Positions 39,749-45,388 of a stretch of DNA of 64,000 nt are shown one piece after another (position 1 is the stretch's first letter; each line of letters opens with the position of its first letter). Position numbers and translations under genes: made by a program. The DNA is from an uncultured Thermoplasmata archaeon. GTDB taxonomy: Archaea; Thermoplasmatota; Thermoplasmata; RBG-16-68-12. The stretch covers positions 87,615 to 151,614 of the forward strand of contig CAVYJM010000017.1 of NCBI GenBank assembly GCA_963768855.1. Reading direction: 5' to 3'. Under the pieces are notes generated by a model. It saw only the letters and a program-made list of their open reading frames with translations, searched no databases and was not told the origin of the DNA.

Positions 39749-40597
39749 ATGACCGACTACGCGCATCCGGAAGTCCTCGTCGACACGGCCTGGGTCCAGA
39801 AGCACCTGGAGGACCCGAAGGTCCGGATCGTCGAGGTCGACTACGACCCCGCGGCGAACTACACCCTCGGCCACATCCCAGGCAGCGTCCTCGTGGACTG
39901 GCGGAAGGATATCAACGACCCCGTGTCCCGGGACATCCTCTCCAAGGAGGCCCTCGAGGCCCTCCTCGGCCGCCTCGGGATCTCGAACGCGCAGCGGATC
40001 GTCCTGTACGGGGACTTCAACAACTGGTTCGCGGCGTTCGCGTTCTGGGTGCTGGCGTACTACGGCGTGCGGAAGGTCGTCCTCCTGAACGGCGGGCGGA
40101 AGAAGTGGATCGCGGAGGACCTGCCCCTGTCGAAGGACGTGCCGGCGTTCCCGGCGTCCACGTTCGCGGCGAAGAACCCGAACAAGAAGCTCCGCGTCTA
40201 CCTGAAGGACGTCCAGAAGATCGTCGAGAAGAAGGACGCGGTCCTCGTCGACGTGCGCGGCCCGAAGGAGTTCTCCGGGGAGATCACCGCGCCGCCCGAG
40301 TACCCGACGGAGCACGCGCAGCGCGGCGGGCACATTCCCGGGGCGCGGAACATCCCGTGGGCGCAGGCCGTGAACGAGGACGGGACGTTGAAGAATGCGG
40401 ACGAGCTCAAGGCGATCTACGAGCCCAAGGGCGTGACGCCCGAGAACAAGGTGATCACGTACTGCCGGATCGGTGAGCGCTCAAGTCACACGTGGTTCGT
40501 GCTCAAGTACCTCCTCGGGTACCCGGACGTCCGGAACTACGACGGCTCGTGGACGGAGTGGGGCAACCTCGTGCGGACGCCGATCGAGAAGCCGTAA
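39749..40597 (+). CDS. Double-domain rhodanese / thiosulfate sulfurtransferase
   Basis: HPEVLVDT, GHIPGS, LNGGRKKW, LVDVRGPKEF, GHIPGARNIPW, catalytic YCRIGERS, YDGSWTEW. Confidence 0.95.
   Translation: MTDYAHPEVLVDTAWVQKHLEDPKVRIVEVDYDPAANYTLGHIPGSVLVDWRKDINDPVSRDILSKEALEALLGRLGISNAQRIVLYGDFNNWFAAFAFWVLAYYGVRKVVLLNGGRKKWIAEDLPLSKDVPAFPASTFAAKNPNKKLRVYLKDVQKIVEKKDAVLVDVRGPKEFSGEITAPPEYPTEHAQRGGHIPGARNIPWAQAVNEDGTLKNADELKAIYEPKGVTPENKVITYCRIGERSSHTWFVLKYLLGYPDVRNYDGSWTEWGNLVRTPIEKP
40452..40596 (+). repeat. Direct repeat copy 1 (native 3' end of the sulfurtransferase gene)
   Basis: About 92% identical over 142 bp to 41244-41385. The last 32 bp are identical to 45357-45388. Confidence 0.95.
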
Positions 40598-40612
40598 CGG
40601 GGCAGGTGCCAC

Positions 40613-40873
40613 TCAGAACCGATAGACGTCCTTCCGGTGCCCGAACCGGGTGAAGCGCAGCTCTCCTTCGCCCAGCTCGTAGATGCCGCGGTACGATCCC
40701 ACTCTCAGCCGCCAGGCACCTTTCATGCCGCGCGGTGGTCGGATGTCCAAGCCCGGCCTCGGCTTGGGATCCTTTTCCAGCTCGTCGAGGGCATCGGCGA
40801 AACGGCGCTGGATGTCTCGCGGCAGACGAGCCAGCTCACGCTCCGCCGACCGGCTAATCAGGACGCGGACCAA
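40613..40873 (-). CDS. RelE/ParE-family toxin
   Basis: RVLISRSAERELARLP...WRLRVGSYRGIY...FGHRKDVY. Confidence 0.88.
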   Translation of the reverse strand: MVRVLISRSAERELARLPRDIQRRFADALDELEKDPKPRPGLDIRPPRGMKGAWRLRVGSYRGIYELGEGELRFTRFGHRKDVYRF

Positions 40874-40877
40874 GGGC

Positions 40878-41081
40878 TCACAGCCTCAGTCGCTTGCGTA
40901 CGTCCTTCCAGTCCGAGAACGTGTCTTCCTTGAGTCTCCGAAGGTGCTCCCGGATGAAGCCCTCCGGGGGCCGATCGTCCATGAGGTCGTTGAGGACGTC
41001 GTCGTACGTGGCGCCGCCGACCTTGTAGGAGCGCAGACGGGCAAGCGTCTCCGGCTTCACCGGAACCGTCGTGGTGGCCAT
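40878..41081 (-). CDS. Antitoxin (small RHH-like protein)
   Basis: TTVPVKPETLARLRSYK...TYDDVLNDLM, lies 4 bp upstream of relE. Confidence 0.78.
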   Translation of the reverse strand: MATTTVPVKPETLARLRSYKVGGATYDDVLNDLMDDRPPEGFIREHLRRLKEDTFSDWKDVRKRLRL

Positions 41082-41093
41082 GACCATCAATAT

Positions 41094-41116
41094 CATCAAC
41101 TTGATGCTATTAATAG
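41094..41116 (-). promoter_or_regulatory. TA promoter: palindromic TATA-like box plus adjacent operator palindrome
   Basis: CTATTAATAG (41107-41116) and CATCAA-C-TTGATG (41094-41106) lie just upstream of the antitoxin start. Confidence 0.55.
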
Positions 41117-44194: not shown

Positions 44195-44376
44195 CCCTCG
44201 CGGGGCCCCCCGTGCTACGGCGTAGCCTAGCCTTCTGGTAAGAAGGTTTTGAATCGACAGTAGGGACCCCAGTGGGATTCCACAGGGTGGCTCATGCCCT
44301 GGCTGGCCGTTCCGCTCCCCCGAATGGGGAACGAATGCGCAGTACAAGGCCCGCGAAGCGGGAGGGGGTGATACAC

Positions 44377-45237
44377 GTGAGAAAGCTATTGGCAGCGGCC
44401 CTCGCAATCTGCATGTTCGCCCTGTGGGTCCTGTCCGTTCCACCGGCCTCGGCCGATTCCGAGCCTGACGAAATGGGCATGGTCCTCGTGTCGTACTCCG
44501 ACATGACGTTCAGCCTCGACGTAGGCCACTGGGAAGGGACGGTCAAGGGCGACATCCGAGGCACGCTCGAGCTGTATGAGAGTCCGGCGAACTTCGTTGA
44601 GGGGGGCTTGGAGTACTTCTTCGAGGACTTCATCATAACGACGGCCAAGGGAGTAATCCAGGGAACGGACGCCGGCGTCTACGACCTGACGACGAGCGAC
44701 TTCTGGGCGCACGGTCAGGTCACGGAGGCGTCAGGACACTGGACGTTCCTGGTCGGCTACACGCTATTCGAGTGGGGCACCACCTCACCTTTTGGCGTGT
44801 TCCCGATCACAGGCAACCATGTGCCCATGGTCCTGCTCCCGGCCCATCCCGAGTCGGCTGACGATGAGCGGCTCCTCGTCTCCTACACGGACATGGCATA
44901 CAGTCCCGACTGGGGCTACTGGCGCGGCACGGTGACCGGGGACGTGACCGGAGCGATCGGCTTCTGGGAGCAGCCCCAGAACTACGTGATCGGTGATGTG
45001 GAGTTCTTCTTCGAAGCTTTCACCGTCACCACGCACCGGGGAGTGCTCCAAGGGTTCGACATCGGGTACTACGACCTGCCGACAGGGAACTTCTGGGCGT
45101 ACGGCCAAGTCACCGATGCGTCGCGGGGCTGGGCGTCCCTCGAGGGGTTCGCCTTCTTCGAATGGGGCACAACGTCCGAGGTGGGCGTCTTCCCGATGAC
45201 CGGCGAGGATGTGCCCTTCGTGCTCCTGGACCTGTGA
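44377..45237 (+). CDS. Secreted protein with two tandem ~120-aa all-beta domains
   Basis: Signal peptide. Repeats LVSYSDM...FWAHGQVTEASG...EWGTTS..GVFP and LVSYTDM...FWAYGQVTDASR...EWGTTS..GVFP. GGTGAT SD before GTG 44377. Confidence 0.8.
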   Translation: MRKLLAAALAICMFALWVLSVPPASADSEPDEMGMVLVSYSDMTFSLDVGHWEGTVKGDIRGTLELYESPANFVEGGLEYFFEDFIITTAKGVIQGTDAGVYDLTTSDFWAHGQVTEASGHWTFLVGYTLFEWGTTSPFGVFPITGNHVPMVLLPAHPESADDERLLVSYTDMAYSPDWGYWRGTVTGDVTGAIGFWEQPQNYVIGDVEFFFEAFTVTTHRGVLQGFDIGYYDLPTGNFWAYGQVTDASRGWASLEGFAFFEWGTTSEVGVFPMTGEDVPFVLLDL

Positions 45238-45269
45238 CGGGGCGAACCGAGGACGACCTCAGTCCACAT

Positions 45270-45300
45270 GCCGCCCGAAAGGGCGGCCTCTCCCCCTTTT
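45270..45300 (+). terminator. Hairpin terminator of the secreted-protein gene
   Basis: GCCGCCC-GAAA-GGGCGGC followed by CTCTCCCCCTTTT. Confidence 0.6.
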
Positions 45301-45353
45301 CCGCGAGCCTGCAAACCTAGCTGAATCGGCTCCGCCGCTCTCCGGGACCGAGA

Positions 45354-45388
45354 GGGAACCTCGTGCGGACGCCGATCGAGAAGCCGTA
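45354..45388 (+). repeat. Direct repeat copy 3 (35-bp att-like core)
   Basis: GGGAACCTCGTGCGGACGCCGATCGAGAAGCCGTA: 32/32 match to 40565-40596, and its first 27 bp match copy 2. Confidence 0.92.

Follow-up and report, generated by a model that had tools for sequence, protein, structure and literature searches.

The 3' end of a gene for a two-domain rhodanese (thiosulfate sulfurtransferase) in an uncultured soil archaeon is a landing pad to which small gene cassettes have been added repeatedly, not in one genome only but across a whole family of Thermoplasmata, and in more than 100 of these cassettes no known recombinase gene was found. The gene lies in a stretch of 64,000 nucleotides (nt), positions 87,615 to 151,614 of contig CAVYJM010000017.1 (assembly GCA_963768855.1), which is referred to here as the window. 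The contig measures 152 kb and belongs to a soil Thermoplasmata metagenome-assembled genome (MAG) of 2.87 Mb, G000, whose nearest named relatives are soil MAGs labeled 'Thermoplasmata archaeon'. Judging from the layout of the repeats, each cassette appears to be a non-autonomous module consisting of cargo followed by a portable copy of the rhodanese 3' end, the arm, which stops just before the stop codon. An earlier reading of the window, made from its letters alone (the sequence-only reading), had proposed a landing pad of this kind from three direct copies of the gene end.

The rhodanese gene (39749..40597, plus strand, 282 amino acids; Pfam Rhodanese 1.5e-37, in two stretches) is the anchor of the array. 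Copy 1 is the resident gene end itself (40448..40597, plus strand, attL-like), and the minimal core shared by all copies is TGCGGACGCCGATCGAGAA. Copy 2 (41240..41388, plus strand) is the arm of the first cassette and a pseudogene fragment of the rhodanese 3' end: positions 40448-40593 and 41240-41385 are 92% identical over 146 nt, a weak similarity on the left reaches about 41170-41212, and the copy matches amino acids 225-282 of rhodanese by tblastn, with an internal stop. Copy 3 (45345..45388, plus strand), the short arm of the second cassette, aligns over 46 nt at 91% by self-BLAST and has a near-perfect core of 35 nt, which forms a three-copy family at 40562-40596, 41354-41388 (86%) and 45354-45388 (97%). 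The repeated gene end described at first was thus confirmed, as was the mosaic nature of copy 3, which has GGGAACC as in copy 2 and the GAGAAGCCGTA end as in copy 1. A search for further core copies, suggested by the same reading, returned nothing beyond the array: in the 2.87 Mb of G000 the 24-nt core occurs exactly three times, on one strand and within 4.8 kb, compared with 0 for the reversed control, so chance is excluded as the source of the repeats. The possibility of an assembly artefact, which had also been raised, does not apply, since the copies differ from one another, the contig around them measures 152 kb, and the same architecture recurs in dozens of independent assemblies.

The contents of the two intervals also agreed with the initial description, a toxin-antitoxin (TA) pair coming first and a STAND ATPase with a secreted-looking protein second. 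Open reading frames (ORFs) were called with a simple GC3 heuristic. Cassette 1 (40598..41239, minus strand) carries a ParE toxin gene (40613-40873; Pfam ParE_toxin 7.5e-10, 39.7 bits with a cut-off of 23) and, upstream of it, the gene of a 68-residue RHH-like antitoxin (40878-41082), for which the match to DUF7557 (2.9e-4, 20.6 bits) is below the cut-off of 25. By its gene content the pair is a predicted type II toxin-antitoxin system of the ParE family. The TATA-like sequence ACTATTAATAGC, located about 30 nt upstream of the antitoxin ATG (about 41107-41118), is kept in relatives, and the same ParE/antitoxin unit (U1) was found at more than 25 loci with varying neighbors. Cassette 2 consists of two divergent genes. 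Gene A (41396..44443, minus strand) encodes a STAND-type ATPase of 1015 amino acids with an AAA_16/NACHT-like P-loop in Pfam at residues 244-386 and an N-terminal stretch of 240 residues without family assignment. Gene B (44377..45237, plus strand) encodes a protein of 286 amino acids in whose translation a signal-peptide-like N-terminus and two internal repeats can be read. No Pfam or PADLOC match was obtained for the product of gene B, and the PADLOC defense models matched neither three STAND variants nor this secreted partner. A STAND gene accompanies gene B in G009, in G014 and in metagenome contigs as well.

All genomes in which the distribution of the repeats was followed are MAGs. A protein search in 40 relatives, including 24 sampled members of the genus, found orthologues of the rhodanese with 72-95% amino acid identity in 22 of the 24 genus genomes; many of these genomes have extra fragments corresponding to the last 25-90 residues of the protein, located downstream and on the same strand. 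A 19-nt core was present in 35 of 44 family genomes, sister genus included, usually as several same-strand copies. Scanning of metagenomes gave 80 soil contigs, 47 of them with at least two core copies, and 104 inter-copy intervals, mostly of 500-1000 bp with some up to 9 kb, all copies being in one orientation. These loci were retrieved through the core and are therefore biased toward arms which retain it; arms without the core exist, for example in L043, L044 and L056. In G057 the rhodanese gene is followed by seven arms over 33 kb (eight copies), with two Rhs toxins, several TA pairs and an ABC transporter block among the cargo, and the order of this array is reproduced in two independent metagenome assemblies. 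One cassette of the G057 array (L062:7907-19619; contig C37, 27.9-39.6 kb) contains a Rhs protein of 1796 amino acids, then RHS-repeat ORFs of 365 and 498 amino acids and small genes, and resembles a polymorphic-toxin locus with orphan C-terminal modules nested in the rhodanese-arm array.

Cargo differs among the relatives, as had been anticipated. With a semicolon for a cassette border and the arm length in nucleotides in brackets, the array of G009 reads gene, SnoaL, STAND, secreted (72); MNT, HEPN (144); DUF4760, dead antitoxin (79); kamA. That of G005 reads gene, HicB-like (147); ParE, antitoxin (144); thioredoxin-methyltransferase. For G017 the order is (83); PIN, MazE (24); ParE, antitoxin (132), and for G002 it is gene, ParE, antitoxin (138); DUF6775, Thi4 (99); thioredoxin-methyltransferase. 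Altogether the cargo includes, by Pfam, ParE/RHH, three PIN/MazE families, HicAB, HEPN/MNT, several STAND-TPR families and Rhs toxins, as well as DUF4760, glyoxalase, Thi4, DUF6775, SnoaL and an ABC transporter block. Relative to the anchor gene the TA cassettes are convergent, with a TATA-like box of their own, and the orientation of cargo across arrays is mixed. Empty sites, also foreseen, were found in G021, G006 and several metagenome contigs, where the gene stands without an extra copy, and one metagenome contig (L168) lacks a single cassette that is present in another (L221). With such variable cargo and empty sites, the content of the array is not identical in all relatives.

The arms have a constant right end and a variable left end. 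On the right every arm ends in ATCGAG(AAG), and the comparison of L221 with L168 puts the boundary right after ATCGAG. What follows, the stop with the one to three codons before it, varies between copies (CCGTGA, TGA, GAGTAG and others) and travels with the right-hand cassette; the last codons of the rhodanese gene after ATCGAG(AAG) likewise belong to the cassette on its right. On the left, arms extend for 24 to more than 300 nt, and the length of an arm is characteristic of the unit on its left. The 32-nt core proposed as the repeat unit must therefore be replaced by a cassette-borne arm of 24 to more than 300 nt, decaying in the manner of a pseudogene. Mismatches from the consensus fall on third positions in 72-81% of cases in intact genes versus 41-57% in arms, and arms carry indels; by these features the arms are pseudogenes. 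The excess decay at non-synonymous positions is graded along the arm, from 0.093 per site in the left part through 0.046 in the middle to 0.028 in the right part. A common left boundary of the arms at 'q40' was discarded as an artefact of using the locally atypical gene of the window as the query, as decayed homology continues leftward. A later peak of left boundaries at q150-179 may be a detection effect.

Several comparisons show that the cassettes are shuffled, that arms move between species and that single cassettes are gained or lost. Identical unit types occur with different neighbors and in both orders (U1 before U8, and U8 before U1), and the ParE unit stands before the STAND unit in L050 and L228 but after it in L165 and L230. 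Between G000 and G009 the rhodanese and kamA are 95% identical, whereas identity drops to 49% for the STAND and secreted proteins, and the two arrays have the TA unit at opposite ends. The G009 arm which follows the HEPN/MNT cassette is 97.1% identical to the gene of G023 compared with 89.7% to the gene of its own genome, and one arm from the sister genus is 89.1% identical to the gene of the first genus compared with 82.6% to its own. Two metagenome contigs from different samples, L221:1337-1924 and L168:484-609, have flanks which are 100% identical over 606 and 904 nt and differ by one single-gene cassette of 330 nt, bounded by a perfect 123-nt repeat and encoding a small Cys-rich protein of about 90 amino acids. 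Along with this difference the C-terminus of the rhodanese shifts from ...IEKP to ...IEE. A homogenization of the gene 3' end across species at synonymous sites was not seen overall (third-position divergence of 0.31 versus 0.34), with a twofold excess in the G000/G009 pair alone.

These results bear on whether mobility is needed at all. An ancient duplication of the gene end with unequal crossing-over, piecemeal replacement of cargo and vertical descent with differential loss would explain why 9 of the 19 long arms are closest to the gene of their own genome, why copy 2 in G000 and the TA-adjoining arm of G023 have derived changes in common, and why the ParE unit occurs in two genera. It would not readily produce arms clearly foreign to the host gene, of which there are several, the divergence of cassette alleles to 49% identity where the flanks are nearly identical, the occurrence of two units in either order, or the imported tract at a second gene, described below, and we regard purely vertical descent as very improbable.

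The end of the rhodanese gene is not the only site of this kind. Self-comparison of G000 revealed the same layout at the end of an unrelated gene, for an ABC-F ATPase. Contig C24 (L276:3036-3378) carries an empty ABC-F allele, while in contig C20 (L277:2856-4303) a VapBC cassette begins right after the ABC-F stop codon and is followed by a 343-nt arm, 89.5% identical. The gene-attached ABC-F copy of C20 is 99% identical to the empty allele, and the distal arm with a short flank is about 10% diverged within contigs which are otherwise 98-99% identical. This contrast indicates that the VapBC cassette and its arm were imported; because the copy attached to the gene resembles the host sequence along its whole 343 nt, the crossover is placed in about the last 45 nt. 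The three short contigs C19, C20 and C24 represent one region in versions that are 90-99% identical, as would result from contamination of G000, estimated at 7.7%, or from a mixture of strains, and they probably come from variant strains. They provide a natural comparison of occupied and empty sites but call for caution with copy counts. Other variants of the ABC-F site were found in C19 (L292), G009 (L293) and the sister genus, and shorter fragments occur after a methyltransferase and a GNAT gene, or after UvrD. No recombinase was present in any of the ABC-F site variants examined, and no link was found between the VapBC cassette at this site and the cassettes at the rhodanese site. A repeat pair on contig C10, the third candidate, turned out to be a duplicated gene 5' end and a different phenomenon.

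The two anchor genes have nearly the same ending. Both finish with ATCGAGA[A/C]GTGAG, 12 of 13 positions being identical (40585-40597 in the window; the rhodanese version is the 'EK-stop' allele from relatives), and random pairs of gene ends in G000 are equally similar at a rate of about 1.2e-4. In the family the motif was counted 33 times, compared with 3 for the reversed control, and almost only at the rhodanese and ABC-F sites.

Attempts to find an enzyme for the cassettes were not successful. No recombinase was identified by Pfam among about 75 clusters of cassette ORFs, although novel folds would escape Pfam, and a phmmer search with six tyrosine recombinases of G000 against six-frame ORFs of about 110 loci, the total screened for recombinases, gave nothing. 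The ORFs between the copies in the window match no recombinase or transposase family in Pfam; PF00589 is absent from the window contig and no intI adjoins the array. The absence of an integrase or transposase between the copies, claimed at first for the window, therefore holds there and in more than 100 cassettes. The genome-wide check for recombinases proposed in the sequence-only reading was positive, in that G000 encodes about six tyrosine recombinases, all on other contigs. Features of known recombination sites were sought as well. DNA folds of the arms on both strands gave z values of +0.3 to +1.3 and no stable hairpin, which disposes of an integron-like attC fold. A dif site of the kind used by integrative mobile elements exploiting Xer (IMEX) appears less likely, with a weak dyad and no skew switch on the 152 kb contig; skew is weak in archaea, and the genome is fragmented. 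The dyad in the core, assessed by eye, pairs 7 of 9 positions in its arms around a 3-nt spacer. As for an extrachromosomal attP, the seven matches to the core pattern in IMG/VR were all due to chance, lying in a DNA polymerase gene or in unrelated DNA.

Given this lack of integrases, the array might be thought of as the wreckage of tandem integrase-carrying elements which later lost their integrases, like the additive islands linked to tRNA genes. There is precedent in the islands of Prochlorococcus, with degraded elements and with partial tRNAs that integrase-bearing tycheposons left behind at scattered positions (doi 10.1101/2020.12.28.424599), and G000 itself has a classical island with a tRNA-Ser and an integrase on contig C12. 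Against such an origin, neither integrases nor fragments of them turned up in or around more than 100 cassette intervals, most cassettes are of 500-1000 bp with tight and reproducible borders, and strains otherwise identical are polymorphic for one cassette. Intact modules are also reused in different orders, a reuse which random decay would not yield. We consider wreckage an unlikely explanation.

Such an architecture can only arise if an arm and a resident copy recombine reciprocally, and the explanation to which we incline, at about even confidence, is that host functions carry this out by homologous recombination along the arms. The arm of a circular or incoming cassette would undergo reciprocal exchange with the gene end or with any arm already in place. 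The cassette would supply one or two new final codons to the gene, which would stay intact; the arm would come to lie distally, and older cassettes would be pushed outward; recombination between neighboring arms would delete or release cassettes and shuffle their order. The host homologous recombination machinery would act on the arms, with no cassette-encoded enzyme, perhaps after a sequence-specific first step at the terminal motif ATCGAGA(A/C)G. What we infer from the arrays is that a circle is formed, in which direction the events run and which enzyme acts. Two features fit recombination by the host: the arms greatly exceed the length required of a site-specific core, and two unrelated genes serve as anchors. 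The graded decay would follow if the crossover point varies and everything in the arm to its right is renewed with functional sequence at each integration.

Other observations weigh against homologous recombination. The right boundary of the arms at ATCGAG(AAG) is sharp, and homologous recombination alone leaves this exact junction unexplained. Arms of 24-46 nt are poor substrates for it, and at the ABC-F site the crossover fell in the last 45 nt or so despite longer identical stretches in the middle of the arm. The near-identical 13-mer at the ends of two unrelated genes suggests recognition of a sequence. The decay gradient may be inflated, since the arms were found through their 3' part, and no circular intermediate or excision junction was observed. 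The main alternative, proposed in the sequence-only reading, is an unlinked site-specific recombinase whose gene would lie at another place in the genome or on a helper element and which would insert and excise the cassettes in trans with the core as its att site, comparable with Xer and IMEX, IntI and integrons, or Ccr and SCC-like elements that lack ccr. Such an enzyme would account for the sharp and constant right boundary of all arms, for short arms of 24-46 nt still marking cassette borders, for the terminal 13-mer at two unrelated targets (p about 1e-4), for the 33 versus 3 motif occurrences almost confined to these sites and for the position of the ABC-F crossover, and the genome has its six or so tyrosine recombinases elsewhere to draw upon. 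However, in about 110 loci the site is never accompanied by a candidate enzyme, the dyad of the core is weak, the folds, with positive z-scores, show no attC-like structure, and no GC-skew switch suggests dif. Nor was an extrachromosomal attP found, the IMG/VR matches being chance and the core copies in the genome being the three in the array; long arms would be unnecessary, and the graded decay fits exchange along the arm. A recombinase acting in trans is thus possible, but we hold it with less confidence than recombination by host functions.

The arms could also be regarded as the basis of an integron-like capture without a dedicated integrase. In this tentative proposal the arms would be the sole determinant of mobility, and the cassettes would hop between species and be stacked behind the gene by host recombination, possibly with a sequence-specific nick or cut at ATCGAGA(A/C)GTGA. 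None of these models accounts for the first joining of unrelated cargos to an arm at a single exact nucleotide.

Upstream of the rhodanese gene lies the gene of a secreted Ig/TSP3-repeat protein of 1543 amino acids. To the right of copy 3 there is a gene for a lysine-2,3-aminomutase-like radical SAM protein, kamA (45426..46868, minus strand; Pfam LAM_C 3.4e-37), which was considered as the ancestral right flank and rejected, since it is lineage-specific at this locus, being found there only in G000 and its closest relative G009. A 76% identical paralogue is present on contig C6 of G000, so that the kamA gene beside copy 3 is a second copy in the genome, which may itself be acquired. The empty site predicted by the sequence-only reading, with the rhodanese gene joined to kamA, was not found. 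The gene which recurs on the right, both in genomes without an extra copy and after the last arm elsewhere, encodes a thioredoxin-methyltransferase fusion, and this is the ancestral right neighbor of the rhodanese gene. Beyond kamA, the plus-strand gene at 47188-47643 (151 amino acids) belongs to the OsmC family and its position is conserved in relatives. The minus-strand ORF at 46876-47511 (211 amino acids), with low GC3 and no family match, was dismissed as probably spurious, an antisense shadow of the OsmC gene.

Two further loci hold isolated fragments of the anchor genes. On contig C8 of G013 (L045:10226-10472) there is a 250-nt fragment of the rhodanese 3' end with 94% amino acid identity to the query, sitting apart from the rhodanese gene of that genome in another gene context. 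The island on contig C12 of G000 (L291:2704-19961; 105.7-123 kb), a classical one at tRNA-Ser(cga) with a tyrosine integrase of 408 amino acids, includes 101 nt of the ABC-F gene end as an isolated fragment. Its GC content is 54-60% compared with 66% genome-wide, and it carries TGT/DpdA-like, Ogg-like, 8xMP and EamA genes.

A search of the literature for the same architecture found no direct precedent, and the known systems each agree with it in part. In staphylococci, SCC (staphylococcal cassette chromosome) and pseudo-SCC elements form composite arrays at the 3' end of rlmH, with direct repeats of about 15-20 bp, and some members lack a recombinase and depend on others. The reuse of the end of a conserved housekeeping gene as an integration site is similar, but SCC is bacterial and at least some members have Ccr serine recombinases, an enzyme not seen here. 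The IMEX are integrase-less elements that stack in tandem at one chromosomal site by means of the host recombinase Xer at dif. The stacking at one site without an integrase is shared, whereas the site here is the end of a coding sequence, apparently without a dif-like 11-6-11 dyad or skew switch, and long arms are not a feature of IMEX. With chromosomal integrons the arrays have in common small head-to-tail modules made of cargo and a 3' recombination site, many TA pairs, shuffled order and content which differs between close relatives. Unlike integrons, they have no intI nearby; their arms are gene fragments without attC-like hairpins, and the anchor is the end of a coding sequence and not attI. 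Integron cassettes are mostly promoterless, in one orientation and read from Pc, while those described here have their own promoters and mixed orientation.

The closest overall resemblance in layout is to additive islands, tycheposons and integrated mobile elements of archaea, in which direct copies of a gene 3' end also delimit serial blocks, the target gene stays intact, newer blocks push older ones outward, and the cargo is rich in defense and accessory genes. Archaeal elements located in 3'-distal parts of protein genes, which form arrays by reuse of the site, carry integrases and have att sites of 13-70 bp (PMC6563490). Additive islands have tyrosine or serine recombinases, or fragments of them, and such short att sites, but here none was seen in more than 100 cassettes, arms reach more than 300 nt, and most cassettes are a single operon. 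The traits that set these arrays apart among additive islands are therefore the anchor at the end of a protein gene, the long cassette-borne arms, the operon-sized modules and the lack of a recombinase in more than 100 instances. The minimal mobile elements of Neisseria, a concept listed in PMC3787668, are cassettes exchanged between conserved flanking genes by homologous recombination. These cassettes likewise have no mobility genes, vary between strains at a fixed site and are moved by the recombination of the host, but they lie between two flanking genes and replace one another, whereas each cassette here has a single arm of its own and is added serially.

The arrays bear on how accessory genes, among them those of TA pairs, STAND ATPases and polymorphic toxins, are spread in uncultured archaea that have no obvious plasmids, conjugation or prophages. 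The architecture is concrete, widespread and easily recognized, with more than 100 natural instances, including the gain or loss of a single cassette at the level of populations. If the arms alone suffice, cassette mobility would exist here in a minimal form, which would also offer a simple design for targeted insertion in archaea; if instead a hidden recombinase reads the shared terminal motif, this would be a new archaeal site-specific system. Under either mechanism, the arms can be used as a practical marker to locate flexible islands in MAGs of Thermoplasmata.

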